A stretch of 62,335 bases of DNA from a virus (IMGVR_UViG_3300030380_000755:1-62335), one strand, 5' to 3'. Positions 27,889 through 42,388 are shown, counted from the first letter of the stretch. Translations and numbers: made by a program. The notes: generated by a model from the letters alone, not told the origin.

Positions 27889-27908
27889 ATTTAGGGAATT
27901 CCCTAAAT
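27889..27908. promoter_or_regulatory. TTTAGGG-N4-CCCTAAA palindrome, copy 1
   Basis: atttagggaattccctaaat abutting the AGGAGG SD of the helicase gene. Confidence 0.8.
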
Positions 27909-27911
27909 GGT

Positions 27912-28181
27912 TTATTTTTTCTTCTTATAATTCCGAGCGCGGTTCTTACTGCGGTTTTCTATTTTTACACCGTCTTTATTGGAACCACCTTTCGACAAGG
28001 CTTTCTTATGGCTGATGTCTTTGCCTTCACGTTTATCAGCTTTACCGTTCCTGTTAGCATCTTTACTGGTGCGATCCATCTTACGGCGGGCACGCTGACG
28101 TTCCATCCTAGCTTCAAAGGCTTTACTACCTACAGGTTTATTCTTTTGTTTAGGACGATCTTTGGGATTTTTATATGGCAT
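27912..28181 (-). CDS. HNH-like endonuclease
   Basis: GKDISHKKALSKGGSN...NRARN motif; basic protein. Confidence 0.6.
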   Translation of the reverse strand: MPYKNPKDRPKQKNKPVGSKAFEARMERQRARRKMDRTSKDANRNGKADKREGKDISHKKALSKGGSNKDGVKIENRSKNRARNYKKKK

Positions 28182-28849
28182 TAGTTGGCTCCGTTATGAA
28201 CACATTCAATAATAGGACAATATCGTCTGCACAATCCGTTAGGCCGTGCGTTCCACATGTCTTCTTTTGCTGCGGTTTCCATCTGCCCGTACTTACCGAG
28301 CCATTTCTCCCACAGCTTGGACTTATCATACTCCATGTAAGTATCTTTTACCAAGTCATTACAAACTACAAATAGTAATGCGGCGCGTACCTTTTTGATC
28401 TGCGGATACCGCGCCATCAGTGCAAGAGCCATTAACTCTAGCTGCCCTTTGTCCGCATACCTAGAAGATTTGCCTGTTTTATAGTCCACAACGGTGGCTA
28501 TTTCATCGTCCAATATTACTAAGTCAGCAATACCACGAAACCAAACATTAGAAGCGTAAAAGTTACAAGCCTCTAGGTTTTCCGTCAGGCCCATCTTTAT
28601 CTCGCACAGCTTTTCACCCTTTCTGTCCTTCAAAGATGTTAGGGCTTTCTTCGCATAGCTGAACTTTGCGGGTACAGGTGTATCCTTACCAATGAAGTCT
28701 TCGGCCATTTTGTGGAACTCGTTGCCATATAGTATAGCCTCGGTCTGCACGAACGGCACCTCTTTCAAGATGTGTTTGTGGTAATACTGCTTCGGGCATT
28801 GCTCAAAGTCTTTGATCTTACTGAAGGACCACGGCCATACTTTTGTCAC
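28181..28849 (-). CDS. PD-(D/E)XK exonuclease (Cas4/RecB-like)
   Basis: WSFS....F..CP, GIAD, VDYKTGK, QL..., C-terminal C...C...C. Confidence 0.88.
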   Translation of the reverse strand: MTKVWPWSFSKIKDFEQCPKQYYHKHILKEVPFVQTEAILYGNEFHKMAEDFIGKDTPVPAKFSYAKKALTSLKDRKGEKLCEIKMGLTENLEACNFYASNVWFRGIADLVILDDEIATVVDYKTGKSSRYADKGQLELMALALMARYPQIKKVRAALLFVVCNDLVKDTYMEYDKSKLWEKWLGKYGQMETAAKEDMWNARPNGLCRRYCPIIECVHNGAN

Positions 28850-30678
28850 TCACATTCTCCATACGATTTGCCTGTTCCGCTTTCGCATGTGATCGGCAAT
28901 CCATCAGCCCATTTAGGTGTTTGGTTCATACATTCTTCGACATATGCTTGTGCTTCACCCAACTCCTCGTCGGCTACACAGGCCACAATGCTGTCATGTA
29001 CAGTTAACACAACCTTGTATCTCTTGGCAATAAGTAACATTTGGTGTCCTATGATACAACGTGCAATAGCTTGACACACATTCTCCACCACCTTACCGCC
29101 GTATATACGTTTTGGACCTCTGCGTGTTTTGTATGTGTATTCGGGACCACGTTCCCCTTGCTCTGCGGCCAACCCATGATAAAACATAGGTAGACCAGAA
29201 GGTAAAATTATTGAGCTGGTAGGTGCGTCCACCTTCAATACGCCTTTACGCCCAAAATCTAAGGTATCCCCACGCTGCATACACTGAACCATATTATTAG
29301 CGGCTCGCCACAAGGAACTGATCGCACCGTTAGCATCGCGGTACACCTGTATGATGCGCCGCGCTTCTCCCAAGTCTATGTACACGCCCATGCCTTGTAA
29401 TTGTGCTTGAAACTTAACGGCACCCATACCGTAACCTGCGCCAAGGATTGTAGTCTTACCCACAAACCTTTGATCTTTGCTTACCCCATCTACTGGCACG
29501 TTATAGATACTGGACGCCATATATTTATATACGTCCTCACCGTCCGCAAACTGTTTGGTCAGATCATCTTGCCCTGCAAGCCACGCTAATACACGCGCTT
29601 CGATCTGTGAACTATCGCAGTCTATCAGGGAATGTCCTTTGGGCGCTATTATGCTACCCTTTAATTTCTTACCGTTCGGGCCACGGCTAGGTAGGTTCTG
29701 TAGGTTGATCTTATCGTCGCCGCCCCACCGTCCAGTATGTGCCGCATAATATCTTACAGGGACGGGCAGAAGTCCACGGTCCGAGATGTCGATGAACCTT
29801 TGAGTACGTGTTTCTTCTAACGTAGATTTACTACCAAGTCGCGCTGCTACTAACGACTGCACACGATCATCCTCATGTTCTAACAACTGTTTGAACTCTT
29901 CGTCGCTCTTGGCAAATGCAAATGTTTCTTTGCCTGTGGTTAGGCTTGTCTTCATCGGGGGTTTAACCCCAAACTTTTTTAACAACTCCGCAAACTTCGG
30001 GTTGGACATAAGGTCTTTCTTATCTTTTACCCCTGCATCAAATAGTAGTTGGGTTTTGCGATCTTTTACGTCTTGAAGGTGCGACTGCAATAACTCACGG
30101 TCCAAGTCTAGGGTAGGCTCTGTAAACATACGCAAAGTAGCGTCTATCAAACGTAACTCGCGGGGCGGGAACTGTCGTGCCATCCTACTAAAAAGTTTAT
30201 AGGTGAGGTCCACGTCATTAATACAGTAGTCGCCGTACTCCGCTAAATCTACGGGTCCAAAATCTCCACGCCTTTTCCCGAGCGCACGTACGACCTCTGT
30301 CCCTTTAACGCCGAGATTGTATCTTTCAGATAACGCAGCGAGGCTTGCGCGAGCTTCAGTCCCATGTAAGGCACGGGCAATACACAAAGTATCGGTATAC
30401 ATCCTAGGACGAATATTAAAATGCCAATTAAGAATGGCACCATCAAACATAGTGTTATGGCAAAGTACCATAGCTTCATGCCAGTCGAAACCGTTGAGAT
30501 ATCTTTTAAGTTGTTCATGCGTTCCACTAGCCCACTCCGTTTCTCCATTGTTTACTTTTACAGCTACGCCGATCACCTCAAATCGAGGATCACGTACATA
30601 GGCTTCTGTTGTTAGTTTAGACAGAGAGTAATCTCTATCATAATATGTTTCAAAATCTAGCGTTATAAGGTCCATCAA
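28846..30678 (-). CDS. polA: DNA polymerase family A with 3'-5' exonuclease
   Basis: LDFETY exo I, HN..FD exo II, YC..D exo III, TGRW, NLQN, D.SQIEAR motif A, K...LG..YG motif B, TVHDS motif C. Confidence 0.95.
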   Translation of the reverse strand: MMDLITLDFETYYDRDYSLSKLTTEAYVRDPRFEVIGVAVKVNNGETEWASGTHEQLKRYLNGFDWHEAMVLCHNTMFDGAILNWHFNIRPRMYTDTLCIARALHGTEARASLAALSERYNLGVKGTEVVRALGKRRGDFGPVDLAEYGDYCINDVDLTYKLFSRMARQFPPRELRLIDATLRMFTEPTLDLDRELLQSHLQDVKDRKTQLLFDAGVKDKKDLMSNPKFAELLKKFGVKPPMKTSLTTGKETFAFAKSDEEFKQLLEHEDDRVQSLVAARLGSKSTLEETRTQRFIDISDRGLLPVPVRYYAAHTGRWGGDDKINLQNLPSRGPNGKKLKGSIIAPKGHSLIDCDSSQIEARVLAWLAGQDDLTKQFADGEDVYKYMASSIYNVPVDGVSKDQRFVGKTTILGAGYGMGAVKFQAQLQGMGVYIDLGEARRIIQVYRDANGAISSLWRAANNMVQCMQRGDTLDFGRKGVLKVDAPTSSIILPSGLPMFYHGLAAEQGERGPEYTYKTRRGPKRIYGGKVVENVCQAIARCIIGHQMLLIAKRYKVVLTVHDSIVACVADEELGEAQAYVEECMNQTPKWADGLPITCESGTGKSYGECE

Positions 30679-31109
30679 CCCTTACTCACTAACTCACCAC
30701 CACATGCCATGTATCCACACGCGTCCACCCAGTTGTCTGGATGTGACGGGTTCGACTTTATACGCGCAGCTTTTAACAACGTCATCATCACGGCTACATC
30801 TGTGGCGCTTACATCCACGCCTAAATGCACAGACCAGTACTTACCTATGGTACTGAAGTTATTCTCCATGTTGCCATGGTCAGCCGCACGATCCTTGGTC
30901 ACATATCCTTTGGCGGTATCTAGCACCTGCCCACGCGTTACCTTACGCGCTTCCCTTTCAAACACTTCATCTGGTGTGCCGATCTTCTGCATCAGCTTAT
31001 ATACATACCCATAAGATGTTTTGGTAGCTGTAGCTATGTCGCTCACAGTGGCCTGTGGATGTTTAATTTTATACGCCCACACTATGTCTGCTTTACTTTT
31101 CTTAGTCAT
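30675..31109 (-). CDS. HTH plus DUF6378-like domain protein
   Basis: DR...HG...NF..I...WS, DVA.MM.LLK.AR, DNWVD..GY.A motifs. Confidence 0.7.
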   Translation of the reverse strand: MTKKSKADIVWAYKIKHPQATVSDIATATKTSYGYVYKLMQKIGTPDEVFEREARKVTRGQVLDTAKGYVTKDRAADHGNMENNFSTIGKYWSVHLGVDVSATDVAVMMTLLKAARIKSNPSHPDNWVDACGYMACGGELVSKG

Positions 31110-31126
31110 GCCGTTCTCCTAAACGA

Positions 31127-31378
31127 TTAAACAGTTTTTTTCTTCTTCAGTTTCTTTTTGCGGCGCTGTGCAATATATTCAAAAAGTTTTGTACTTAGCT
31201 TTCTTTGCACGAGGTTTACATAACCCTCGTTACTAGCTTGCATTGCAGAGGCGCGGTGCGTACCCCCTGCATATTCTCCTACGTAATACACAATACTGTC
31301 TCCGTACTGCGTATCTCTAATCGCATCTTCAAATGCAGTCTTGCCGCGCTCTTGTACGATGTTTAAAACCTTGCTCAT
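31127..31378 (-). CDS. Hypothetical protein
   Basis: 83 aa ORF overlapping the upstream stop codon. Confidence 0.65.
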   Translation of the reverse strand: MSKVLNIVQERGKTAFEDAIRDTQYGDSIVYYVGEYAGGTHRASAMQASNEGYVNLVQRKLSTKLFEYIAQRRKKKLKKKKTV

Positions 31379-31563
31379 ATCTTTTTACCTGCCTGTCTTA
31401 AACCACGAACAAACAAATCAAGTTCCTCACGTGCAGTCCAAAGTTCCTGTTGTATACGAGGCCGCGCATCGTTTCGATGTTCTTCGTCCTGTAAGTTATC
31501 AACCTGTCGCCGTAACCATTTTAGTTCGCTCTCTTGGAATGGGGTTAACTTAGTATCATCCAT
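31375..31563 (-). CDS. Hypothetical protein
   Basis: ATG 31563 preceded by GGAGG. Confidence 0.65.
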   Translation of the reverse strand: MDDTKLTPFQESELKWLRRQVDNLQDEEHRNDARPRIQQELWTAREELDLFVRGLRQAGKKI

Positions 31564-31575
31564 GTATGCCTCCAT

Positions 31576-31736
31576 TGTTAAAGTGGTGCCCCATGTCTGG
31601 AAACACGGGGACTAACCGTGACGCGGTTTCTTCGGTACGATCACATACGCTATGAACAATCATGGAGGGCGCTGCTCGTACTGCTGCGGTTTTCGTGGGA
31701 CAATATCCATAACCCACAACCCACTCACAGCTAGGG
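31576..31736 (-). ncRNA. Candidate structured non-coding RNA
   Basis: Intergenic region tiled by four stem-loops whose wobble pairs are G-U only on the minus strand. Confidence 0.45.
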
Positions 31737-32039
31737 TTAACCGTCTGAGACCATAGACCATGCACGTAACTCATCCATTACCGTGTGCATGTTGTCCTCA
31801 TTAACAACCATGTCCAGTCCCCCTGCGGCACGTATCTCTTTTAGGTTCTTAGCTTGCAAGGGTGTGGGTTTGTTTTTCCCTGCCTTACATTCGATCCCAA
31901 AAAATAATCCTTCGTAACATCCTATAATGTCAGGCACACCGCTACCTCCGTAGCCACCTGTTACAGGGTAAAAGTAGTAGGCGCGTAGCTGCTTTAGCTG
32001 CTCTACCACTTTCTTTTTAACTTTTGCTTCGGGTGTCAT
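31737..32039 (-). CDS. VRR-NUC family nuclease / resolvase
   Basis: MTPE.KVK, G.PDII, GIECKA, PT.LQ motifs; start reassigned to ATG 32039 (GGAGG SD). Confidence 0.85.
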   Translation of the reverse strand: MTPEAKVKKKVVEQLKQLRAYYFYPVTGGYGGSGVPDIIGCYEGLFFGIECKAGKNKPTPLQAKNLKEIRAAGGLDMVVNEDNMHTVMDELRAWSMVSDG

Positions 32040-32093
32040 TGTCGTCCTCCATGATACCAGTACCCCCCAAGCGAGGAGCCGTGACCCCTCGCC

Positions 32094-32110
32094 ATTTAGG
32101 GAATTCCCTA
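32094..32110. promoter_or_regulatory. Palindrome copy 2
   Basis: atttagggaattcccta, upstream of the VRR-NUC gene. Confidence 0.75.
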
Positions 32111-32359
32111 TTTGTAGACCCAAAATAAGTATGGGCCGATACGTGCACCCACGCCATCTACATCATTAGGTGGTGGTGGAACTTTCAGCATATTCAGCGT
32201 AGCTATTCGCTCTTGCATCCAGTTTGGTAGCTCGTCCACAGAATTGTAGTGACCATCGACTTCTTTGTCAACCTTTCCAATACCAAAACTTGTGATTGTA
32301 ACGTGTTTAGTATCAAATGCTACGTTTACACGATAAGTTATACCATCGGTTGTACCCAT
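32108..32359 (-). CDS. Hypothetical protein
   Basis: 83 aa; LP.W...IA.L...V.GVG motif, similar to the C-terminus of 32371-33279. Confidence 0.65.
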   Translation of the reverse strand: MGTTDGITYRVNVAFDTKHVTITSFGIGKVDKEVDGHYNSVDELPNWMQERIATLNMLKVPPPPNDVDGVGARIGPYLFWVYK

Positions 32360-32370
32360 GTGTTTGCACC

Positions 32371-33279
32371 TTACACGTAGAGGTAAAACGTATGGGCATT
32401 TACTTTGTATCCCACACCCTCTACGAAGTGACCATCTTCACACATACTCATAGCAGCGCACTTGTGTTGCATATCTTCCGACACCTCGTCTGGTTCGTAA
32501 GATTGTACCATCTCCACCTCGAGTCGGTAGTTTTTGGTCACGTCTTTGACACGCGCACAGTTGACCACTTGTTTACCCCATCGCTCGGCAATGTGAACAA
32601 AGTCCATAGGCACAGCACGATCACTAAACCTGTTGGCTTCTTCCTGTTGCTCAAACATATCACGGACAGCGGCATCAAGCTCCTTGTCGATAAACGTATG
32701 ACCAGACTGCACCATGGTTCGTAGCTCGGCCATCAAACGTTCTGCGGCTTTTTTGTCTGAGCCATAACCGCTTGTGTTGAGGCCAACGGTAAGTTTTGCA
32801 TGGTCATAATTTGATCGTACGGTGCTCTTGAACTTTTCTACTTCTTGTCTAACATTTTTCACCAAAGCGGTAGCACATTCGCCCACAGTGTAAGATACAA
32901 GATGTCTCTTAGCATGTTTCACGGCGGTATCCATGTTGATCGCCATACGCATGTTGTGTTGATCGCCACTGGTACAATACTTATTGTTCTCAATGTTACG
33001 TGCACACACGATGTACTTATCCTCACCGTGCACACTGGTCGCAAAGTCACCATACCCGATGTACCCCGTAGTCATCAGGTCACCCTCACGGTAGACATAT
33101 ACTGTATTGTTACTGCGTGGTATGGTCTTTACGCGTAACGTTTTTTCTACTGCGCGAACGAACTCGCGTAGTTGAGGTTTCATCTTATCTTGTTCTAGCA
33201 CCTCACCGATATCATCTTTAGGCGTAAAACGAGCCGCTTGTGCTTTGGCGGCGTCTACTATTGTATGATTTATAGACAT
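32371..33279 (-). CDS. Hypothetical early protein
   Basis: 302 aa ORF with GAGGA SD. Confidence 0.75.
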   Translation of the reverse strand: MSINHTIVDAAKAQAARFTPKDDIGEVLEQDKMKPQLREFVRAVEKTLRVKTIPRSNNTVYVYREGDLMTTGYIGYGDFATSVHGEDKYIVCARNIENNKYCTSGDQHNMRMAINMDTAVKHAKRHLVSYTVGECATALVKNVRQEVEKFKSTVRSNYDHAKLTVGLNTSGYGSDKKAAERLMAELRTMVQSGHTFIDKELDAAVRDMFEQQEEANRFSDRAVPMDFVHIAERWGKQVVNCARVKDVTKNYRLEVEMVQSYEPDEVSEDMQHKCAAMSMCEDGHFVEGVGYKVNAHTFYLYV

Positions 33280-33282
33280 TTT

Positions 33283-34284
33283 TTATCCTCTCACTTTTTT
33301 TGTAAAACCGCAGACTTTGTTGATCTTGCGGTTGAATTGCGCTTTGACGCATTTAATATGCTCCGCGTCACTTTCAAACATGTGACGCGTATGATAAGCG
33401 GTTTCACCCATTATCGCGTACATAAGATGTAACCGTAGTGTGTGTTCAGAGTTAGTTATAACCTTACGTGTAGTCTCTGAATTACTTTCAAAACTATCAA
33501 TTATATTCCATCCGTAACTACCTAATTCACTACGAACTTCCTCACGCATACGGTTGTTGTACTCGTAATCTCTTGTAGGTAACAGCGGATACATAGTGAA
33601 CGCCCATTCGCGGAACTCAGCAATAGCATCCTTCATCTTGGCTTTGGCTTTCGTATTTACCCGAACCTTGGGCGGAACAGGCAGCTTCTTACCACCGTCC
33701 ACAAAAGATATTTTGTCGCTGTCAACACGAAACGTCAGCGCCACACCATCATCACGAGATGTTAAGTGTTTATTCCATTGGTTTTTACGCGCATCATCAG
33801 GCAGCGCCCACGCAGCTAACGTGTTGCTCTTGGCAAGATAGTATTCTGTGTCACCTACTTTGATGAAGTGTTTACCGTTACGAATGATGAACCGCATACC
33901 CTGTGGCAAGTGTCTGTCTAAGAAACTATACCGACTGTTGTGTGCACCTTGCCCTGTACCATTACGCACCTTGATTGTAGTCGTACCATCTCTGTGTCTA
34001 CGCCACACGATTGGTGCAAGGTTAATCATTTCTGCCTCGGTTGGTTTACCTTTGTTATCACTGTAACCCCAAGTGCGAAACACATCATCACCAGTGTTAT
34101 ATCCGTCTGTCAGCACGTAGCAGTTGTTGTTGATCTTTTTGATCCGCTCCCATTTACGCGCACGGTCACCAAGAGGACGTATGTTGTGTAGTACAAGTTT
34201 ACCACGCAGCGGTTTGATAGCATCGTAGCATGCTGCTACTTTATCGAATGTGCTTAGTGTTATGTTTTGCCAATATAAGGCCAT
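33283..34284 (-). CDS. Hypothetical early protein
   Basis: Start reassigned to ATG 34284 (GGAG SD); the upstream extension in the ORF track overlaps another gene. Confidence 0.7.
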   Translation of the reverse strand: MALYWQNITLSTFDKVAACYDAIKPLRGKLVLHNIRPLGDRARKWERIKKINNNCYVLTDGYNTGDDVFRTWGYSDNKGKPTEAEMINLAPIVWRRHRDGTTTIKVRNGTGQGAHNSRYSFLDRHLPQGMRFIIRNGKHFIKVGDTEYYLAKSNTLAAWALPDDARKNQWNKHLTSRDDGVALTFRVDSDKISFVDGGKKLPVPPKVRVNTKAKAKMKDAIAEFREWAFTMYPLLPTRDYEYNNRMREEVRSELGSYGWNIIDSFESNSETTRKVITNSEHTLRLHLMYAIMGETAYHTRHMFESDAEHIKCVKAQFNRKINKVCGFTKKVRG

Positions 34285-34329
34285 TGTATTTCTCCATTTG
34301 TTATGAGGTGACACCGCGCCACCCCTTCC

Positions 34330-34349
34330 ATTTAGGGAATTCCCTAAAT
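34330..34349. promoter_or_regulatory. Palindrome copy 3
   Basis: atttagggaattccctaaat. Confidence 0.8.
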
Positions 34350-35059
34350 CAATAATTTTTACCCACGTACCACGCGGCAACCACCAACACGGATACCAGT
34401 ACCCCCCAGACAAGACGCTTGGGTATACGTATAGTAAACACGTTTGTATCGACAGCAGTGGTAACCTTGGGATCGGTAAGCGTTGATTCAACGACGGGCT
34501 GTGCCTCCTTCTGTGTAACACGTTTTGGCTTGGCCTGTACGTGAGCTCTTCCGGGGTCAGGTTTGGATTGTGCTTTTGGATTGATGTCATCCAACTCAGC
34601 GGAGGTAAACGCATCCCATTGACCCTTACCCTTACGCGAGTGATTACCATAAAACACGGGGCCATACTCCGTAGTCAAAACTTCACGCGCCTCACCTGTT
34701 ACGTTATCAGGAATGAACCAACACATACCGTCCCACTTTGCGCCTAACGCCTTGGCCTGTTCCTTTGTATCAAACGTAACATGACGTAAGTAATACTTTG
34801 GTTTGGCCCGTACGGGTTTATCATCAACAAGCGCACTTATGTTGAATGGTTCTTCTATTATCTCAATAGCACGTTCTGACATTTGTGCCATACTCTTGTT
34901 CCATACGGCCATTTTCACTTGCACCGATTTCTCGGTACGTCCTAGTTGATTAGCAATATCTTTGTAGGCAAAGCCATCGTTTCTCAAAGTTATAAGCGTT
35001 TCCAACTCTTTACTTGTCCATGATTTGTTGCTCATAGGGGCAAAATTTGTTGTAACCAT
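34349..35059 (-). CDS. GcrA/Myb-like HTH plus DUF5710-like domain plus C-terminal transmembrane helix
   Basis: WT..E...L..L...G....IA..LGRT..SV; K..AKALGAKWD...W; LVWGVLVSVLVVAAWY. Confidence 0.65.
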   Translation of the reverse strand: MVTTNFAPMSNKSWTSKELETLITLRNDGFAYKDIANQLGRTEKSVQVKMAVWNKSMAQMSERAIEIIEEPFNISALVDDKPVRAKPKYYLRHVTFDTKEQAKALGAKWDGMCWFIPDNVTGEAREVLTTEYGPVFYGNHSRKGKGQWDAFTSAELDDINPKAQSKPDPGRAHVQAKPKRVTQKEAQPVVESTLTDPKVTTAVDTNVFTIRIPKRLVWGVLVSVLVVAAWYVGKNY

Positions 35060-35064
35060 GACGG

Positions 35065-35286
35065 TTATCCTCCAGTTTGTGGCCTTACTTTTGGCCTTAT
35101 TATTTTGGACACTACATCTGTCCGTTCACATTGAACCATGCTATTTCTATCGAAAGCATAGATCGGGTCGTAGTACGCACTTAACGCATCACCACATTCT
35201 TGCGCACTGGGGAAAACAATACTTGATCGCACGAATTCCCCTTGGATATGATAACTTAATACCATGATCGTAAAATATTCTATCAA
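35065..35286 (-). CDS. Hypothetical protein
   Basis: 73 aa ORF in the operon. Confidence 0.6.
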   Translation of the reverse strand: MIEYFTIMVLSYHIQGEFVRSSIVFPSAQECGDALSAYYDPIYAFDRNSMVQCERTDVVSKIIRPKVRPQTGG

Positions 35287-35429
35287 AAGTCTGGTTCTCC
35301 ATTTTCATCAAAGGTTGGCGTTTTGAAAGTGAAGTCACGCTCCACCTTCGGCTCTGGTTCTTTGGGTTGCAAAGGTATAACGCCTATAGCTTTCAACGCT
35401 ACCTCTAACGTGTTAGGTATATCACCCAT
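35283..35429 (-). CDS. Small hypothetical protein (not in ORF track)
   Basis: 48 aa MGDIPNTLEVAL...NGEPDF; GGAGG SD; fills the gap with overlapping start/stop codons. Confidence 0.55.
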   Translation of the reverse strand: MGDIPNTLEVALKAIGVIPLQPKEPEPKVERDFTFKTPTFDENGEPDF

Positions 35430-35646
35430 CTTCATCCTCCCAGTCTCGTTCGATTTCTCCTAACCCCTTACAGTTATCGCACTCCACTTGGTATTCTTCC
35501 AAGTATCCGTACGGATTTGTGGAACTCATAGGCACAGCACGTTCACGCGTCTGTTTACCTGTACCGTCACACTCAGGACATGCGATAAACGGATTATCTA
35601 CAAAGATATTATTCAATGCATACGTCCCCCTTGGTTCTGCACACAC
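35422..35646 (-). CDS. Small DnaJ-type zinc-finger protein
   Basis: CPECDGTG and CDNCKGLG (CxxCxGxG twice); start uncertain. Confidence 0.65.
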   Translation of the reverse strand: MCAEPRGTYALNNIFVDNPFIACPECDGTGKQTRERAVPMSSTNPYGYLEEYQVECDNCKGLGEIERDWEDEDG

Positions 35647-35894
35647 CGCTTCAAGAACGCGGCGGCTTCTTCCTCGGCTTCACGTACGACAGTATCTTCG
35701 TGCGCATCTGCAAGCATATCAGAGCCATGGTCACGCATGAAATCATCAAACATACCCATGATACCTACGAGTATAGACGCCCTTATGTGGACAGGCTGCT
35801 CCATGAAATCTTCCATGAACTCCATACCGATAGACACATCTGTATCGTCAATGTCAGCGTGTATCTCTAGTACCTTCATCTTCTTAGCCATCAT
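35613..35894 (-). CDS. Acidic hypothetical protein
   Basis: 93 aa, GGAGG SD, overlaps the upstream stop codon. Confidence 0.65.
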   Translation of the reverse strand: MMAKKMKVLEIHADIDDTDVSIGMEFMEDFMEQPVHIRASILVGIMGMFDDFMRDHGSDMLADAHEDTVVREAEEEAAAFLKRCVQNQGGRMH

Positions 35895-37093
35895 AAATCC
35901 TCCGACTGTACATGCACCGTCACACCGTGATCGGGCTTGGCATTCTTGTTATCCACGATCACCCACAACACAGGATGATCCCACGTACCCCAACCACCGT
36001 AGAGGTAGCCATCTGTAAACACGATAGACGCTTGTGGTTTTATGTTATGCTCGCGCAAATATGCAGGGACACAACGTACATCTGTGCCGCCCCCACCTAC
36101 AGGGTTAGTCTTGGCCGCTACGGTATACAGTTCGTCGTTGGTATACTTCTCGTACCCACAGACTTCTGTGTCCCAATAGCTTACGTGTAACTCGTCAGGC
36201 TTGACTGCTTCACAGATACCAACCAATTCACTAATCATTATCTGCTGTTCACGCTTACCGATGGAACCAGACATGTCGTTGTGTTCTGCGATACACTCAA
36301 CTTGTTCTGAGATGCCGCTTGGCATGTAGATACCTGCCGACACGTATTTACGATTTGGTTTATTCCATGTTGAGTAGTCGCTACCTGCACAGGTTGTTTG
36401 TACAAATTCACGCAACGCTTCACGCCAATCAACCTTGGGCTTCAACAATTCTTCCATGTCACGGTTGCCACCACTGCCCATCTTACCTGCAACAAGTGAA
36501 CCTTGGCGTATGGCCTCGTCCACCTCGCGTTGTATCTCACGTTGCTCGTCGGGCGTCATGTCTTGTGCACCTTCCCAATCGTGATCGTCGAACCCTTGGG
36601 GATGATTGCCACGGCCACCGCCGCCACCGCCATCTTCTTCGTTGTATATATCCCAGAAGATTTTAGCCGTACCCCAACCCTTGTATTTGGGATTATGGCA
36701 TCCACCCTTGGGCATCTTGACCCAACCATCTTCGCTGTACTCCTCAATGATCTTACCATTGATATCGTAGTCCATTGCGATGTTGGCGGTGTGCGGACAT
36801 ATCTTCCACAAGTGTGCCCACGTTACCAAGTGACGATACATCTTGTGGAACACCTCGTGTATCACGACGAACCGTAACTCTGCATCGTTATGTGCAGATA
36901 CAAACGCCCTACCGTAAAACTCGTCACGTCCGTTGGTACAGGCTGTTGGCACCTTGTCATCAATCGTACGTTCACCGATCATTAGCAACCCTGATATCTC
37001 GGGGATACGCGGCATGATATCAACGACTGCTTTGGATAGCCGTTGTTCTTCCGTTAGTTGTTTACCTATTGTCAACATTATTCTTTCCTCCAT
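35891..37093 (-). CDS. Metallopeptidase-vWA protein (DUF2201-type)
   Basis: PTACTNG, HEVFH (HExxH), N.A.D..IN, MIDAS DMSGS, GGGGTD, FTDG. Confidence 0.88.
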   Translation of the reverse strand: MEERIMLTIGKQLTEEQRLSKAVVDIMPRIPEISGLLMIGERTIDDKVPTACTNGRDEFYGRAFVSAHNDAELRFVVIHEVFHKMYRHLVTWAHLWKICPHTANIAMDYDINGKIIEEYSEDGWVKMPKGGCHNPKYKGWGTAKIFWDIYNEEDGGGGGGRGNHPQGFDDHDWEGAQDMTPDEQREIQREVDEAIRQGSLVAGKMGSGGNRDMEELLKPKVDWREALREFVQTTCAGSDYSTWNKPNRKYVSAGIYMPSGISEQVECIAEHNDMSGSIGKREQQIMISELVGICEAVKPDELHVSYWDTEVCGYEKYTNDELYTVAAKTNPVGGGGTDVRCVPAYLREHNIKPQASIVFTDGYLYGGWGTWDHPVLWVIVDNKNAKPDHGVTVHVQSEDL

Positions 37094-37299
37094 ACACGTG
37101 TGTCACGTGTCATTAGATCAATTGTTTTCATTGCAATTTTTATTTTTACTGCTCTAGCCGCTGCGTATGTATTTCCTCGTAGAGAATCTGGAATTACGAA
37201 ACTGTCCCCGACCTCCATCTTTTCAAGCGTTAAGCGTAACTCGCCTTTCTTATCTGCACCCCGTTCTGGGATTGGGATATTTTTTTCTATTTCAAACAT
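37078..37299 (-). CDS. Small putative DNA-binding protein
   Basis: IEKNIPIP, MEVGDSF, RVWR motifs. Confidence 0.7.
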   Translation of the reverse strand: MFEIEKNIPIPERGADKKGELRLTLEKMEVGDSFVIPDSLRGNTYAAARAVKIKIAMKTIDLMTRDTRVWRKE

Positions 37300-37311
37300 T
37301 ATCTTTTCTCC

Positions 37312-37329
37312 ATTTAGGGAATTCCCTAA
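37312..37329. promoter_or_regulatory. Palindrome copy 4
   Basis: atttagggaattccctaa directly before a GGAG SD. Confidence 0.8.
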
Positions 37330-38421
37330 TTACTTTTTATCCGCTGCAAACATGTAGTTGTTCTGCATTGCCCATGCGGTGAACTTCTTGTTCTTCATCA
37401 CCATTGACTGCTTACTGTACTTGGGTGCACGTACACCGTTGGCGAACATACCCTGTGCCTCCACGTCCAAACGTGGCATGTAGTCCATCCACGCGTTGAG
37501 CCAGTCAGCTTCGATAGATGCAAGCGTACGATAGACAACCATACAAATACCTGCGGCACTGTCAGGAACTTTGGCTTTCTTTGGCTCGTCCTTGATAGAC
37601 TGTAGACTTGGCAGTTGGTCAGACAGTTTCACAAACGCCATCAAGTCCATAGCACCACGGTCACCGATAGTACCCATCAGTAGAGCCGTTAGCGTCTGGT
37701 CATCGAACGCATGACGTTGGTGTAATATGTCAGACGCAGAGTGTAACGAGCGTGGGGTCACAAACGCAGTCCGCTGTTGCTTCGGATGAAATATGTATGG
37801 GTTCTCGTCAGGGTCTTTGATTTCCTCGAATGATGCGAACAGTTGAGGATTGTCCTTGCACCAACCAAGCAAGCTGTGGTCGATACCTTCGTTGATACCC
37901 CATTCGATCCACGCCATGTTGTCAGTCTTACGCACCTGTACCACGGACACACGGTTACGTGCATGTGGTGGTAACATGTCACCCACACCCTCGGACCCTT
38001 TGTTAGTCGTCGCATACACAATGCTGTCAGGATGCAGCTTGATGCTACCCACCGTACGTTCTTGCATGACGCGTAGTAGTGCGTTCTTAACGGCAGGGTT
38101 GGCCTTACCAAACTCGTCAATCATAACAATGATCGGCTTACCCAGATGCGCACCCAATTCTTCGTTGGGCACAAAGGTCACATAGCCTTGCTCGTTCATC
38201 ACTGCCATGTTGGGCAGGTTCAAGTCACCCAAGTCTTTTGTGGTACAATCAAAGTAACACGGTGTATGGGTGGGGAACAACTCCGCTAGCATGTGAATTG
38301 TTGAGGATTTACCATTACCGATGTCACCTTGCAGAAGTATGGTACGTTGAGTGCCCACCGCTGCGATTGCTTTGACACACTGGTCTAGGTTGAGGGCATA
38401 CATTTGTTGTGCATTGTTCAT
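37330..38421 (-). CDS. MoxR/CobS-like AAA+ ATPase
   Basis: Walker A GDIGNGKS, Walker B MIDE, ATTN, TPRS motifs. Confidence 0.88.
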   Translation of the reverse strand: MNNAQQMYALNLDQCVKAIAAVGTQRTILLQGDIGNGKSSTIHMLAELFPTHTPCYFDCTTKDLGDLNLPNMAVMNEQGYVTFVPNEELGAHLGKPIIVMIDEFGKANPAVKNALLRVMQERTVGSIKLHPDSIVYATTNKGSEGVGDMLPPHARNRVSVVQVRKTDNMAWIEWGINEGIDHSLLGWCKDNPQLFASFEEIKDPDENPYIFHPKQQRTAFVTPRSLHSASDILHQRHAFDDQTLTALLMGTIGDRGAMDLMAFVKLSDQLPSLQSIKDEPKKAKVPDSAAGICMVVYRTLASIEADWLNAWMDYMPRLDVEAQGMFANGVRAPKYSKQSMVMKNKKFTAWAMQNNYMFAADKK

Positions 38422-38438
38422 TTGTTCTTCTCCATTTT

Positions 38439-38456
38439 ATTTAGGGATTTCCCTAA
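38439..38456. promoter_or_regulatory. Palindrome copy 5
   Basis: atttagggatttccctaa before the AAA gene SD. Confidence 0.8.
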
Positions 38457-38460
38457 TTGA

Positions 38461-38565
38461 TTAATATCCAAAACCGTGGACGATAAATAATAGTGCGAGT
38501 GGGACGCCAAATACGCATAGCGCCCCGATTAGGTCTTTGAGAAAATTGCGGATACGTCCCTTCAT
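38461..38565 (-). CDS. 34-aa single-pass membrane peptide (not in ORF track)
   Basis: MKGRIRNFLKDLIGALCVFGVPLALLFIVHGFGY; AGGAG SD. Confidence 0.5.
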   Translation of the reverse strand: MKGRIRNFLKDLIGALCVFGVPLALLFIVHGFGY

Positions 38566-38699
38566 TCTTTCTCCTCTTCTGATAAAAACGAACGCAGGTT
38601 CTTTTCTGATACGTCACCAAGCAACTCCTCAATCGCGGTCATGTCACCTGCTTCCACATCTTTTTTGATTTGCTTCAAAACTTTATCAACCAATTCCAT
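38562..38699 (-). CDS. 45-aa hypothetical protein (not in ORF track)
   Basis: MELVDKVLKQIKKD...; start overlaps the upstream TAA. Confidence 0.55.
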   Translation of the reverse strand: MELVDKVLKQIKKDVEAGDMTAIEELLGDVSEKNLRSFLSEEEKE

Positions 38700-39619
38700 T
38701 ACATATCCAGACTTGGTAGTGCCGCGATAGCAGCGGTGATTTTGTTGCGCGTTTCTTCACGCAGCGATGGGCTGTTCTTGATCTGATCTAGGTTAATAGT
38801 ACGATCACCCGATATATGGAACGCCTGTTCCAACCGTTGCCGCATGGCTTCCATCTGACTATCTTGTGTGATGTTACATGTACGCAACATCTCGGTCAGC
38901 TCGACGGCTCGGTCAAACACACTGTCATACAGACGATTGCCTTTACCTTCCTCGTTCACATCCAGTTGACGTGCGAGTGTGGTTAAGTTGTCATACAGTT
39001 TTTGCCATAGGTCATTCATAGCAGCAGTGATACGTGTGGTGTATGTATCTGACGCACTTGCGCGTACCATGTTCAAGGCTTCGTGTGGTAAATCCAACAC
39101 CCAATTACCTGTGTTGCCACCATCTGGTAACTCATTATAGGATAAACGAAACGCAAACTTGCGCCGCACTGTCTCACTTGTTGGATACTCGTCACGATTA
39201 AACAGTGTACCTAGCTTGGCTTGGGCGTCCATCACCTTCCAATCATACACACCCATGAACTGCTCGACTAGACGCTCGAACTCTTGTTGTAGGTCGGTCA
39301 TCACTTCGTTGTATTTGAAATATTGTTGCGTGGTCAGCAATCGGGAGCCGTTGTCAGACCATGGCATTGTCATGCTGTAGTGCATGTTACGCACGTTGCC
39401 TGCAAACTTCTGTACTGCAATCAACTCGTCACAGTTACCCAACAGCTTCTTGCGTACATCGGCTACGCCTTTGTCGGCTTGTGCCAAACTTGTTACTTCG
39501 TTGGACGCTTTGAGGTCTTGCTTACGTGCAGTCCATACGGACGCGTTGAAGTCCACAGTCATTGCGGATGATGAAATGCTAGGCACTTCGATTTGTGGTA
39601 GTTCAAGAATATTATTCAT
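38699..39619 (-). CDS. DUF3150-like protein
   Basis: 306 aa helical protein; T.PW, LF...EYP....VR.KF motifs; usual neighbour of AAA/vWA genes. Confidence 0.6.
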   Translation of the reverse strand: MNNILELPQIEVPSISSSAMTVDFNASVWTARKQDLKASNEVTSLAQADKGVADVRKKLLGNCDELIAVQKFAGNVRNMHYSMTMPWSDNGSRLLTTQQYFKYNEVMTDLQQEFERLVEQFMGVYDWKVMDAQAKLGTLFNRDEYPTSETVRRKFAFRLSYNELPDGGNTGNWVLDLPHEALNMVRASASDTYTTRITAAMNDLWQKLYDNLTTLARQLDVNEEGKGNRLYDSVFDRAVELTEMLRTCNITQDSQMEAMRQRLEQAFHISGDRTINLDQIKNSPSLREETRNKITAAIAALPSLDM

Positions 39620-39635
39620 TATCTTTCTCCATTTG

Positions 39636-39653
39636 ATTTAGGGAATTCCCTAA
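39636..39653. promoter_or_regulatory. Palindrome copy 6
   Basis: atttagggaattccctaa before an SD. Confidence 0.8.
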
Positions 39654-39656
39654 TTG

Positions 39657-39872
39657 TTATCGGGTCTTCTGGTTTAGGTGTAGCAAGTCGTCCTTGCGTG
39701 TTACGAGCGTGTAACCTTGCTTGGGCAGTGGTACTGTGCACCAACTGGCACGTTGCTCTGCTGCTACTACATCACCACATGACATACAGTTTGGGTAGCC
39801 CAGTGCACGGCGTTTGGGTGAGAACGACTCTCCACACACGACACACTCAGCTTTGTGATTTCTACGCGACAT
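39657..39872 (-). CDS. C4 zinc-finger protein (DksA/TraR-like finger)
   Basis: CVVCGESFSPKRRALGYPNCMSC. Confidence 0.65.
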   Translation of the reverse strand: MSRRNHKAECVVCGESFSPKRRALGYPNCMSCGDVVAAEQRASWCTVPLPKQGYTLVTRKDDLLHLNQKTR

Positions 39873-39888
39873 TTTTGACCTCCGAATG

Positions 39889-39908
39889 ATTTAGGGATTT
39901 CCCTAAAT
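39889..39908. promoter_or_regulatory. Palindrome copy 7
   Basis: atttagggatttccctaaat before a GGAGG SD. Confidence 0.8.
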
Positions 39909-39972
39909 GAAAGTTGCTGTGAACAAGACACACGGGTGCCTCGGTAGCTAACATCGCGCTAACTACTCTGTA

Positions 39973-40001
39973 GTTATATCACATATATCAGGAAATGTCA
40001 A
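39973..40001 (-). promoter_or_regulatory. Strong sigma70-type early promoter
   Basis: TTGACA-17 nt-TATAAC on the minus strand, upstream of the leftward operon. Confidence 0.75.
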
Positions 40002-40070
40002 TACGTGTCAAAAACTATCGTATGAGGGGTAAACGTGGTAAGGGACGTAAAGGGACGTTGTGGGGGTCTG

Positions 40071-40308
40071 TAAGTCACTGATGTTAAACGAATGTTCCGA
40101 AGTTCTTTTGTTCCGTAAGGTATATGTCTGGATTTATAAAAGGTGTTTTACGCAGAAGGTGCCCTTCTTTACCCTTCAATAAAATCTTAATATATATACT
40201 TTTAAAAACGGAACAATGGAACATTCCTTTGTTTTCAATGCGTTAAGTACCATTTGCTACGGAACATGGACGGAACTTACGGAACATTCGTTTGTTTTCA
40301 AACACTTA
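40071..40308. other. Putative replication origin (opposed GGAAC iterons flanking an AT-rich core)
   Basis: 14-bp perfect inverted repeat at 40086-40099/40280-40293, multiple (C)GGAAC(A) units, AT-rich tract at 40178-40208. Confidence 0.5.
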
Positions 40309-40353
40309 GCATTTGCGAGACGCGAGGCGCTAGTGGGATACTGGTATCAAATG

Positions 40354-40372
40354 ATTTAGGGAAATCCCTAAA
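40354..40372. promoter_or_regulatory. Palindrome copy 8
   Basis: atttagggaaatccctaaa. Confidence 0.75.
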
Positions 40373-40454
40373 CGTGAGGGGTAATGCGCTAACCCCAACG
40401 TCCCGTAACATTTTATAGTGATGCGCGGCGCAACATAGGTACTGGTATCGGATA

Positions 40455-40474
40455 GTTTAGGGGTATCCCTAAAC
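40455..40474. promoter_or_regulatory. Palindrome copy 9
   Basis: gtttaggggtatccctaaac. Confidence 0.75.
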
Positions 40475-40499
40475 AAAAAAAGACCCGCCGAAGCGGGCC
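40475..40499 (-). terminator. Intrinsic terminator
   Basis: Minus strand: ggcccgc-ttcg-gcgggtc followed by T7. Confidence 0.8.
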
Positions 40500-40602
40500 A
40501 AGTCAGGCATTATGGTATGAGCCAGTGACAATGTATAACAAAATGAAACGAATTGCAACAAGTGATGCGCGGCGCAACTGGGATACTGGTATCAATAGGC
40601 AT

Positions 40603-40634
40603 AAAAAAATGGGGAAACCTTTCGGCCTCCCCGT
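40603..40634 (-). terminator. Intrinsic terminator
   Basis: Minus strand: ggggaggcc-gaaa-ggtttcccc followed by a T-tract. Confidence 0.8.
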
Positions 40635-40640
40635 AAGATG

Positions 40641-40811
40641 TTAGAACAACCATTCATCTAGGTCGTTATCTTCATATCCCGCCCATTCTGCGAGGGCACG
40701 ATTATCGCGTTTCTGTTTTGCTTTATCGACTATTGCCGCGACTAGGCTCCCAACTGGTTGCCATGTATTTGGTTCTTGATCTAATATTTTTTTGGTATCA
40801 TCGTCTGACAT
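40641..40811 (-). CDS. 56-aa acidic early protein (not in ORF track)
   Basis: MSDDDTKKILDQEP...DLDEWLF; GGAGG SD, palindrome upstream, terminator downstream. Confidence 0.65.
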   Translation of the reverse strand: MSDDDTKKILDQEPNTWQPVGSLVAAIVDKAKQKRDNRALAEWAGYEDNDLDEWLF

Positions 40812-40830
40812 TTTATTTCCTCCGAGATTG

Positions 40831-40848
40831 TTTAGGGAATTCCCTAAA
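40831..40848. promoter_or_regulatory. Palindrome copy 10
   Basis: tttagggaattccctaaa before an SD. Confidence 0.8.
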
Positions 40849-40849
40849 T

Positions 40850-40878
40850 GAAATAGGGAGGCCTCTCGACCTCCCTGT
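40850..40878 (-). terminator. Probable terminator hairpin
   Basis: Minus strand: agggaggtc-gaga-ggcctccct followed by atttcattt. Confidence 0.6.
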
Positions 40879-40884
40879 AAGATG

Positions 40885-41424
40885 TTATCGCTTGATTGAT
40901 AAGGTTTCGAATACTGTTAAAACCGCCTTACGTGTAGGCACGTAATCATTACCAAGGTCATCTTTATTTTTCTCAACCCAATTCTTAAGATTGGTTATGA
41001 GTTGATTGCGCATTTCAATGGTAGTCAGTGACTTGGTTTCTTTTACTGTGGCCTCGCCATTTTCTACACTCTCAATCTTGCCTAGGTTGCCACCAGTGTC
41101 ATTAAACACTTTTGGCGCTTGGCGTAACATCAAAGCATTTTTCAAATCTTTGATCGCCGATCCTATTGCCATGGAATCATGGTCGCGCTTTTTAGCTTTT
41201 AATATACTCTCAAATAATTCTTTGAGCTGAGTATATCCCTCTGCGCTAGTAGTCGATTTACCAGACGCAAGGTTATTCTTGGTCGGTGATACCGCGTCGG
41301 TCCAGCGCATATGCTTTGCCACATTGTCAATGTGGGTTTCAAATTTAGCCTCGCCGTTAAGCTTAGAATTCCAAGCTTCTTTGATTGATTTAAGCGCAGT
41401 AGTGTTATTAAGAATATTTGACAT
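40885..41424 (-). CDS. Hypothetical protein, first gene of the early arm
   Basis: 179 aa, GGAGG SD. Confidence 0.75.
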   Translation of the reverse strand: MSNILNNTTALKSIKEAWNSKLNGEAKFETHIDNVAKHMRWTDAVSPTKNNLASGKSTTSAEGYTQLKELFESILKAKKRDHDSMAIGSAIKDLKNALMLRQAPKVFNDTGGNLGKIESVENGEATVKETKSLTTIEMRNQLITNLKNWVEKNKDDLGNDYVPTRKAVLTVFETLSIKR

Positions 41425-41563
41425 TGTTATGCCTCCATATAGTTAGACTTATTTTCGCCTTGTGGCCGTGCTAACAATTACTTTATGCCATGTTATAACG
41501 TGTTATACAATAGATAGAACCGCATTATATGACACCATATAGCATTATATGTTATTAAATACC

Positions 41564-41583
41564 ATTTAGGGACTTCCCTAAAT
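41564..41583. promoter_or_regulatory. Palindrome copy 11
   Basis: atttagggacttccctaaat. Confidence 0.75.
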
Positions 41584-41731
41584 CATGCCCTACGCAACAC
41601 CACCCCCCTACCACCCCCCGCCGCATAGCTAGGGACTCCACATATACATATACATACTATTATGGATAAACTTATAGCTAATTTTTGGTTACCCCCGTCA
41701 CAGGATACCCCCCACCTCTTTTTCAAAACCC

Positions 41732-41760
41732 TTGTCAAAAAATTTTTTGTGCCCTATTAT
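41732..41760 (+). promoter_or_regulatory. Putative promoter for the packaging/late operon
   Basis: TTGTCA-17 nt-TATTAT. Confidence 0.55.
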
Positions 41761-41791
41761 TACGTTATCGGTTACCAACCTGCGATGTACT

Positions 41792-42388
41792 ATGACAATA
41801 AATGCTGTTCCAGAGATGGGAATACCCCTAGAGGATGAGGTAAAGCACATATCTTTACCAGAACGTGCGGCTGCGCTGGATAAAACTATTGACGAACTAG
41901 AAAAGTACGGCGCGGACCTTGAACCTGATGAGGTAGATAAGGAAGTAGCTGCTACATTAGCCACTGCATATGCTCAAGACCCCGACAAAACATCCAAGAA
42001 GGTGACGCATAAGCGTGCAGCGGCCCTAACACCTGCTTCTGTGCGCTTAACAAACAATATAATAGATGAATTTAACCATTCTGTAGTAGAATCTGCCAAG
42101 CAACTGCGCAATTTAGTGACTAATAAGCTCATTATTGAGAGCGAAAACCCTGATCCAAGGGTACGTATGCGTGCATTAGAGCTTCTTGGTAAAATATCAG
42201 ACGTAGGATTGTTTACTGAGAAGTCCGAAGTAACGATCACCCACCAAACAACCGACGATATTAAGGAAAGACTACGTGGCAAGCTTGCAAAACTTGTAAA
42301 TCCACACCCAGAAGTAGAGGAGGCCACAATTATAGAGTCTCATCTACTAGATACGGACAAAGAATTTGGGTTTGACGACGATGACTGA
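41792..42388 (+). CDS. Probable terminase small subunit
   Basis: R.RALELLGK...VGLFTEKSE motif; directly upstream of TerL; start reassigned to ATG 41792. Confidence 0.65.
   Translation: MTINAVPEMGIPLEDEVKHISLPERAAALDKTIDELEKYGADLEPDEVDKEVAATLATAYAQDPDKTSKKVTHKRAAALTPASVRLTNNIIDEFNHSVVESAKQLRNLVTNKLIIESENPDPRVRMRALELLGKISDVGLFTEKSEVTITHQTTDDIKERLRGKLAKLVNPHPEVEEATIIESHLLDTDKEFGFDDDD

Follow-up and report, generated by a model that had tools for sequence, protein, structure and literature searches.

Here we show that the early arm of an uncultured marine phage carries an array of eleven near-identical palindromes, TTAGGG-N4-CCCTA, and that its relatives carry palindromes of other sequence at corresponding places, which switch as a set in association with a single phage protein. 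The DNA studied is a complete virus record of 62,335 bp, IMGVR_UViG_3300030380_000755, and by the window we mean this whole stretch; the protein, here termed E1, is the 179-amino-acid (aa) product of the first early gene (40885-41424, minus strand) and matches no Pfam or PHROG family. We consider it very probable that E1 encodes a phage-specific factor for which the palindromes serve as sites. The more specific interpretation that we favour, and to which we give about an even chance, is that they form an operator array, bound as duplex DNA by a phage-specific dimer of E1 that represses the early arm.

An exhaustive pattern scan of the window returned exactly eleven sites (21 strand-matches of TTAGGGNNNNCCCTA), where shuffling predicts 0.02 and none of 100 shuffled sequences reached 21 matches. 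The number is that given by an earlier sequence-only reading of this DNA, and the positions it listed are also right, lying 1-2 nucleotides (nt) below our site starts (27891, 32096, 34332, 37314, 38441, 39638, 39891, 40356, 40457, 40832 and 41566) because they include the extended arms of the full element, which on the sense (minus) strand reads (A/G)TTTAGGG-N4-CCCTAAA(T/C). The arms are perfect in ten of the eleven sites, 32096 having one arm mismatch, and the five centre types previously noted were all recovered (AATT in six sites, ATTT or AAAT in three, GTAT and ACTT), in agreement with the description of near-invariant arms around variable centres. Allowing one mismatch added no further site, and allowing up to two in the 16-nt form gave 13 matches, namely the eleven sites and two in the late arm (15215 and 53853), against 1.86 expected by chance. 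GC skew and open reading frames (ORFs) indicate minus-strand reading of 22-41.5 kb, an early/replication arm of 19.7 kb encoding a primase/helicase, a single-stranded DNA-binding (SSB)-like protein, a helicase, an exonuclease, a DNA polymerase, an endonuclease and an AAA+/VWA pair; the plus-strand late genes (about 42.6 kb) encode terminase, portal, capsid, adaptor, tail fibre and endolysin and contain no site with one mismatch or fewer. Given this layout, all eleven sites belong to the early/replication arm, and the earlier impression that the late arm has none was correct.

The distribution of the sites relative to genes is likewise as first described. Six are followed after 0-7 nt by GGAG or GGAGG, that is by a Shine-Dalgarno (SD) sequence, and then by a start codon (27891, 37314, 38441, 39638, 39891 and 40832); two lie upstream of the best SD-plus-ATG starts, at distances put at about 45-55 nt and measured here as 57 and 48 nt (32096 and 34332); and three are in non-coding leader or control DNA (40356, 40457 and 41566). 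None of the gene-proximal sites is accompanied by a -10/-35 pair at constant spacing, which speaks against a repeated cassette of stem-loop and early promoter. A search of the whole window against Rfam gave no match at E <=1, and a test for terminators (GC-rich hairpin plus T-run on the sense strand) listed only 41566, weakly, the other listed copies being antisense.

To place the array in its lineage, we used the AAA+ ATPase gene (37330-38421) for a protein-guided scan of IMG/VR, which identified 303 related stretches, and fetched the best 80; five complete relatives of 58-65 kb (G001, G004 and G005 among them) were compared in full and, with the window, are referred to below as the six complete genomes. 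A de novo inverted-repeat search of the best 80 loci found in nearly every locus one dominant palindrome in 4-13 copies, the type of which differs: the arms encountered were TTTAGGG, TTCGGGC, GTTAGTG, GTTAGTC, TTTACGG, GTTAGGG, GTTATGC, GTTATAG, GTTATGG, GTTAGGC and GTTATAC. Each of the five complete relatives has 8-13 copies, exclusively in the early arm, and these occupy the same junctions as in the window, before the genes for the 71-aa, 306-aa, ATPase, VWA-peptidase, ~340-aa, endonuclease and helicase proteins, as well as behind leader terminators and in the divergent control region, where a site at the place of 41566 is present in all six complete genomes. Conservation in related phages, which the sequence-only reading had proposed as a check, was thus found in position with other arms, and its general inference of an arm-wide control system is supported. 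The coding flanks can stay near-identical despite a change of palindrome, as in the ATPase-start region shared by the window and locus L028, where TTAGGGAAATCCCTAA is replaced by TTCGGGCAGGTGCCCGAA. Among the cultured relatives, HTVC027P (41.5 of 57.6 kb covered) and DSL-LC04 (34.2 of 61.5 kb) had at most two copies of any palindrome and no repeated one.

The way in which the arms vary is informative. Perfect 7-bp palindromes account for 421 of 467 unique sites, and the arms are near-invariant within each genome; in the 46 imperfect sites the departures are mainly in the outermost pair, which overlaps stop codons, and include two G-T mismatches and one A-C. At the orthologous site upstream of the ATPase gene, for which we had 28 distinct sequences, 99% of 196 cells are paired (35-43% in slid controls), with two-sided change in six of the seven pairs and one-sided change in no cell. 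Such covariation between genomes, combined with strict identity within a genome, is the pattern expected of a phage-specific, sequence-specific reader acting in trans. It had been suggested that compensatory arm changes would favour an RNA hairpin and strict sequence conservation a protein site; this criterion does not discriminate, because both are seen, the identity within genomes and the fully compensatory swaps between them. The centre is free in sequence and has no consistent strand bias (AAAT 20 against ATTT 10; CCG 10 against CGG 10), the GTTAGTC class being an exception (CACG 26 against CGTG 3, counts that are not independent). A Watson-Crick symmetry that extends into A/T-rich outer positions, together with a free and mostly strand-indifferent centre, is predicted by a two-fold protein-DNA site. 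Lone half-sites were not enriched, barring a mild excess in G004.

Some loci depart from the rule of one uniform palindrome. In L048, L055 and L058 an unrelated GC-rich hairpin (for example GTGGCTACGCCAC) replaces the family palindrome upstream of the ATPase gene. The near-identical phages L081 and L085 each have two classes, GTTAGTC in the upstream part and GTTATGC downstream, with the classes at the two ATPase-flanking sites exchanged between them, and from their sequences they look like recombinant hybrids caught in transition.

The association with E1 is evident at several levels. Most early proteins of the window are 73-96% identical to those of G001, a phage with a different motif in which E1 has no counterpart, and in G005, which has the window's motif, E1 is 70% identical. 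Across loci the first early gene always encodes a protein of about 160-225 aa, belonging to one of three BLAST families, f33, f168 and f5, that can be aligned as one superfamily; all 11 TTTAGGG-class rows in which the region is visible (10 loci and the window) have f33, both TTTACGG cases have f168, and f5 accompanies the other classes. All 77 pairs of E1 proteins that are at least 50% identical share a motif class, while even at 90-99.9% identity a class is shared by only 47 of 70 ATPase pairs, 16 of 28 pairs of 306-aa proteins and 10 of 15 pairs of VWA proteins. In a comparison of 217 pairs with ATPase identity of at least 80%, the 111 different-class pairs have E1 proteins at most 47% identical, 43 of them without a match, against a median E1 identity of 52% in the 106 same-class pairs. 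Near-identical ATPases with different motifs and unrelated E1 proteins are found in L035/L036 (99.4%), L060/L063 (98.4%), L078/L082 (96.4%) and L104/L106 (97%, with E1 at 33%), and in L060/L063 nearly all ORFs are 88-100% identical while E1 and motif both differ. On trees of 53 loci in 9 classes, where the minimum is 8 class changes, E1 requires 9 and the ATPase 15; in eight comparisons on matched sets of loci, one with the ATPase and seven with further proteins, E1 always needs fewer changes, sometimes by only one, the trees of the other proteins taking 5-13.

Other candidates for the reader follow the palindrome less well. The sequence-only reading had named five helix-turn-helix (HTH) proteins, at 25634, 30675, 34349, 37078 and 40885. 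The last is E1, which co-varies with the motif although it has no recognisable HTH, and the remaining four do not track the motif: the products of 25634, 30675 and 34349 are 80-91% identical between the window and a different-motif relative, and the ORF at 37078 is absent from all five complete relatives. A further candidate, the 83-aa protein encoded at 32108-32359, shares its class in 22 of 23 pairs that are at least 60% identical; it was rejected because L104 and L106/L107 have a near-identical core domain and different palindromes. When protein identity was regressed on motif class for 33 families of ORFs, the effects ran from -12 to +10, artefactual antisense ORFs included, and the result was uninformative. 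Within E1, mutual information with class is uniformly high along the protein, so that the class-diagnostic columns do not localise a recognition element.

We found 97 homologues of E1, all unnamed and without Pfam domains, and ten E1 proteins of other classes likewise matched no Pfam family at its cut-off. An AlphaFold model of E1 (predicted local distance difference test, pLDDT, 92) consists of helices, one beta-hairpin (117-127) and a C-terminal helical hairpin, and there is a conserved basic helix resembling KRYWQQQIGARRNDFKRALEKRE. Foldseek searches with this model gave best E values of 1.7 against PDB and 0.57 against BFVD. With VIA-align the best match had Z 6.3 (root-mean-square deviation, rmsd, 1.7 over 43 aligned residues) and involved the C-terminal helical hairpin only, and residues 1-112 modelled alone (pLDDT 87) reached Z 5.5 (rmsd 3.7, 86 aligned); these fold scores are in the chance range for helical proteins. 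An Atlas search with E1 returned only unnamed viral clusters and a weak DUF3102 lead at 0.82. The protein is predicted to pair as a symmetric homodimer, with an interaction score (ipSAE) of 0.81 against 0.00 for the best control, contact agreement between runs of at least 89% and partner pLDDT of at least 89; in the calibration, 20 of the 30 proteins with paired structures and 1 of the 23 with single-chain structures attained this mark, counts that hold only roughly because our own alignment was used. The interface in the model comprises residues 3-43, 59-94 and 135-175, so that an SPTK-type loop (~44-58), the greater part of the central basic helix and the beta-hairpin remain free.

The positions of the sites relative to putative promoters and terminators are consistent with a regulatory role. 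The E1 gene ends in a hairpin plus T-run resembling an intrinsic terminator (40855-40876, minus strand), directly past which lies the palindrome at 40832-40847, itself before the SD of a 56-aa ORF; a terminator-like hairpin is present within 110 nt after the E1 gene in 42 of 52 unique loci, with the palindrome next in 20 of these, which suggests that E1 is a separate transcription unit. A candidate E1 promoter, TTGTAT-17-CATAAA (41482-41510, minus strand), lying between the control-region palindrome and E1, was assigned as a consensus match and is conserved in relatives of several motif classes, reading TTGACA-17-TACAGT in L098 and L104. The palindrome at 41566-41581, in the divergent control region, is about 97 nt upstream of the transcription start site (TSS) predicted for this element and would therefore be outside the E1 mRNA. 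The putative main promoter of the early operon is the near-consensus, host-type TTGACA-17-TATAAC (39973-40001, minus strand), and a leader promoter of this kind, matching consensus at 11-12 of 12 positions with a palindrome at +32 to +124 downstream, occurs in all six complete genomes. Strong promoters precede only some sites. Promoters of apparently activator-free strength with a site in the initially transcribed region fit negative control.

The remaining sites of the window are arranged as follows. In the leader, which has three terminators, the palindrome at 40457-40472 is directly past an intrinsic terminator (40499-40482), and that at 40356-40371 is followed by a GATACCAGTATC palindrome. 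The site at 39891-39906 precedes the SD of the 71-aa gene (39657-39872) and lies at about +60 from the predicted TSS of TTGACA-17-TATAAC. Those at 39638-39653 and 38441-38456 precede the SDs of the 306-aa gene (38699-39619) and of the ATPase gene respectively, the latter being the orthologous position used above to count covariation, and the site at 37314-37329 abuts the stop of the ATPase gene, with GGAG and then the ATG start of a 73-aa ORF coming next. Further along, 34332-34347 is 48 nt before the SD and ATG at 34284 of a conserved gene of ~333-343 aa. The imperfect palindrome at 32096-32111 shares sequence with the TAG codon that ends the 83-aa gene; the ATG of the endonuclease gene (32039) comes 57 nt later, and the site is at about +125 from a promoter-like TTGACA-17-TACAAT (32271-32243). 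The last, at 27891-27906, leads on the sense strand directly into AGGAGG and the ATG of the helicase gene (26342-27877).

According to the model that we favour, host RNA polymerase would transcribe E1 as a short unit with its own terminator, and the product would pair as a symmetric homodimer. We infer that this dimer binds the 16-20 bp palindromes, that it does so as duplex DNA rather than RNA, and that the outcome is repression. The site upstream of E1's own promoter would provide autoregulation. The others would expose the rest of the arm to the same protein, being located in the leader behind terminators, 30-125 nt past each strong host-type promoter and at the start of most early-arm cistrons. 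Bound E1 would most likely act negatively, by blocking the elongating polymerase, and as it accumulated it would throttle or shut off the early/replication arm. This would be a stoperator-like logic in a phage whose sequence gives no sign of lysogeny, no integrase or partition gene being present among the ORFs scanned in the window. As protein and sites have switched specificity jointly many times, close relatives would be regulatorily orthogonal.

A number of observations weigh against this model, and several of them are what would be expected if the palindromes acted instead as RNA hairpins bound by E1, with effects on the repression or timing of translation, or through read-through of the leader terminators in the manner of lambda N. 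We regard this alternative as distinctly less probable than an operator array, although it deserves serious consideration. In the GGG class the centre is 3, 4 or 5 nt long, and G004 alone has seven sites with a 3-nt and six with a 4-nt centre; a rigid dimer on B-DNA should not tolerate such variable spacing, which a protein that reads a stem-loop, of RNA or of extruded DNA, would. An SD and start codon follow within 20 nt at 200 of the 467 sites, compared with 8% of random positions, in line with the six SD-proximal sites of the window, and each of the 13 class representatives that were folded as RNA gave a stable predicted hairpin (-5.1 to -11.9 kcal/mol). The position of E1 as the first gene, with a terminator after it in most loci and three more terminators in the leader of the window, and its conserved basic helix would also suit a protein that acts on RNA. 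Other reservations concern the evidence itself. For E1, neither a DNA-binding fold nor a DNA-binding family could be recognised; all promoter assignments are consensus matches only; same-class E1 proteins can be as little as 27% identical (TTCGGGC, L033 against L035); L081 and L085 have two motif classes and one detected E1; the adjacency of E1 to five leader sites would give some association even without function; and counts across loci are non-independent, many loci being close kin. What favours duplex DNA is the combination of two-fold symmetry, the lack of wobble pairs, the strand-indifferent centre, the predicted dimer and the copies internal to ORFs in G004. An RNA stem would be expected to show G-U pairs and one-sided changes, and there were no G-U pairs and no one-sided change in the 196 cells, with G-T and A-C mismatches about as rare as each other. 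The stem is invariant and the loop free, and known hairpin-binding peptides (N-boxB, MS2) read RNA in the reverse manner. Moreover, the site at 41566 is upstream of the conserved E1 promoter-like element, 3 of 13 G004 sites are within long ORFs (as judged from crude ORF calls), and the symmetry reaches A/T-rich outer positions that bring little gain in hairpin stability.

Explanations that dispense with a reader, or assign it another role, are much less probable. One is that intercistronic stem-loops stabilise or process a polycistronic early mRNA without any protein of the phage and are homogenised by gene conversion. It would account for the occupation of intercistronic gaps and for the unrelated GC-rich hairpins of L048, L058 and L055 at the ATPase-upstream position; we nevertheless think it improbable, as copy-by-copy G-U or compensatory drift would be expected in place of the perfect and, within a genome, identical sites observed, the arm type switches together with E1, most copies are not followed by a sense-strand T-run, and a stem of 7-8 bp falls short of what RNase III requires. 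Hardly more credible is that the palindromes exist as recombination joints, short patches of homology for the exchange of early cassettes between co-infecting relatives. In the comparison of the window with 10 same-class loci, 32 of 123 homology breakpoints are no further than 40 nt from a site, where random placement gives 6.5 +/- 2.5, an excess confounded by the clustering of breakpoints at gene ends, where they are expected anyway, and by the non-independence of the 123 ends. The variable ORFs at 37078-37299 and 38453-38632 abut sites and are absent from relatives, and the L081/L085 hybrids differ in class on the flanks of the ATPase gene. Neither the switching of arms as a set with E1 nor the sites in the control region and past promoters in all six genomes would be explained, and recombination at the palindromes is a secondary by-product at most. 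Thus, among the three options that the sequence-only reading had offered, sites for a dimeric protein, by analogy with stoperators, fit best, and the proposal of joints retained only this confounded support. The least probable of all is that the palindromes are hairpin promoters for a phage-encoded or virion RNA polymerase, as in phage N4, whose promoters have a stem of 5-7 bp and a 3-nt loop with transcription starting just past the hairpin. The dimensions of stem and loop would be compatible with this, as would the closeness to the SD, and the phage encodes very large proteins without assigned function (1916 and 757 aa). We found no RNA polymerase family in any protein scanned, the 2251-aa protein is DarB-like with an LPD39 domain, and in a search of solved structures it had no match and the 1916-aa protein one at chance level (E 0.9), so that the candidacy of the giant proteins as polymerases gained no support from family or structure searches. 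In addition, consensus host promoters precede sites in all six genomes, and the palindrome is symmetric where promoters are directional.

If E1 does read an operator array, the closest known logic, by analogy, would be that of the stoperators of Cluster A mycobacteriophages such as L5 and Bxb1. According to one account, these are many copies of a short site along an arm, mostly in short intergenic gaps, that accompany a true operator at the early promoter; their consensus is phage-specific and correlates with divergence of the binding protein, repressors preferring cognate sites; and they are 13-bp asymmetric sequences, oriented with transcription, in 20-30 copies in temperate phages (PMC6550527). 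The Cluster A immunity repressor is described in a second account as a monomeric two-domain protein (PMC9283540). The array studied here resembles stoperators in that eleven sites are spread along the early arm, including one in the control region, and in that the consensus co-varies with a phage protein, as judged from the E1 pairs and from swaps on backbones that are 96-99% identical. It differs in that the sites are perfect palindromes with a variable centre, in 8-13 copies on one arm only, in that E1, predicted to form a homodimer and without a detected HTH family or fold, would differ from a monomeric HTH repressor, and in that no integrase or partition gene was found in the ORFs scanned. 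We therefore do not class the system as a member of the stoperators, which are asymmetric, read by a monomer and found in temperate phages.

Other systems share some features. KorB of IncP plasmids is a dimeric global regulator of the ParB HTH family whose palindromic operator OB (arms of the TTTAG...CTAAA type) recurs about a dozen times, its distance from the promoters varying. The outline of the palindrome, the copy number and the dimeric reader, here a predicted one, are similar; a KorB/ParB HTH fold is not apparent in E1, for which there was no Pfam match and only the weak Foldseek and VIA-align matches given above, and we know of no swapping of KorB operators between close relatives. The lambda N gene is the first of its early operon and is followed by a terminator, and the boxB hairpin differs in sequence between phages and matches its own protein, in which respects, as in the basic helix and the short hairpin-forming sites, E1 and its palindromes are alike. 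However, boxB is read through a conserved loop and is present as one site per operon with an adjacent boxA, whereas here the loop is free in sequence and length, the stem is invariant and there are eleven sites, one of them upstream of the putative E1 promoter. Polymerases of the T7 family and their promoters also form orthogonal pairs, with about a dozen near-identical intergenic sites before genes that switch with the phage protein; those promoters are directional and read by a polymerase, whereas the present sites are symmetric and have host-type promoters ahead of them, and the proteins scanned included no RNA polymerase. In the literature that we searched on HTVC023P, HMO-2011 and inverted repeats of marine-phage early genes we found no description of this palindrome array, and PMC9599517 makes no mention of the repeat-structure or promoter terms looked for.

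The control region and leader contain further repeated elements. Between the control-region palindrome and the E1 promoter (~41490-41566, minus strand) there are -10-like units with a period of about 10 nt, GGTATTTAAT, ACATATAATG, CTATATGGTG and TCATATAATG, and similar runs occur in same-class relatives. An origin-like region of the leader (40176-40290, minus strand) has five copies of GTTCC(G/A)T (40285, 40276, 40265, 40222 and 40214) followed by AT-rich AAAAGTATATATATTAAGATTTTATTG; in G001, a close relative, this position is taken by GTACCAC repeats, indicating that the phages differ in their iterons as well. A second small palindrome, GATACCAGTA(T/C)C, is present three times on the minus strand (40582-40593, 40438-40449 and 40337-40348), a few nt past a leader terminator or the main palindrome. 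It is conserved in G001, also in three copies, though the main palindrome differs there, and may be the site of another, conserved factor.

Elsewhere in the genome, a conserved trio at 35891-39619 (minus strand) comprises the 306-aa protein (a weak DUF3150 match), the MoxR-like AAA+ ATPase and a DUF2201 metallopeptidase/VWA protein, each gene preceded by a palindrome. The 2251-aa protein (14989-21744, plus strand), with its LPD39 domain and DarB-like C-terminal part, is 26% identical to its counterpart in G001 while neighbouring genes are 75-84% identical, which points to a swapped giant, probably injected, protein. Two possible auxiliary metabolic genes lie in the late arm, one for a beta-ketoacyl-synthase-like protein (3786-4898, plus strand; Pfam E 4e-15) and one matching a PHROG annotated as ferredoxin (51233-51934, plus strand; E 2e-29). 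Neither megablast nor blastn found nucleotide similarity to cultured phages; judged by TerL (45-48%), the nearest cultured phages are HTVC027P and HTVC023P, both of Pelagibacter, and DSL-LC04. The stretch is present, at least in part, in 20 sequencing runs from 11 studies, which are marine metagenomes except for one coded organism and one of which may be the source sample; six of the runs contain half or more of its sampled words. A search for RNA runs that contain 36500-42000 listed none.

Our work has shown that members of a large lineage, represented by 303 related IMG/VR stretches, carry palindrome arrays whose type varies at corresponding gene junctions. A regulator-operator pair that can be read from sequence would offer a handle on the timing of gene expression in this lineage. 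An operator array with a co-evolving reader, for which no family or fold match was detected, is as yet partly supported, and its specificity series is unusually rich: the at least nine arm types, with matched E1 variants on near-identical genomes, would constitute a natural series of orthogonal protein-site pairs, on which the re-programming of recognition could be studied and which might also serve synthetic circuits. More speculatively, and with considerable doubt, E1 may represent a new fold class of dimeric sequence-specific readers and the array an immunity-like system in strictly lytic marine phages, in which superinfection by a phage of the same type is silenced. Were this so, the specificity of E1 would have been re-programmed in at least nine ways in nature, jointly with its 8-13 sites, and the logic of heteroimmunity would extend beyond temperate phages, a resident E1 silencing a superinfecting phage of its own type but not one of another type and thereby driving rapid switching of specificity.

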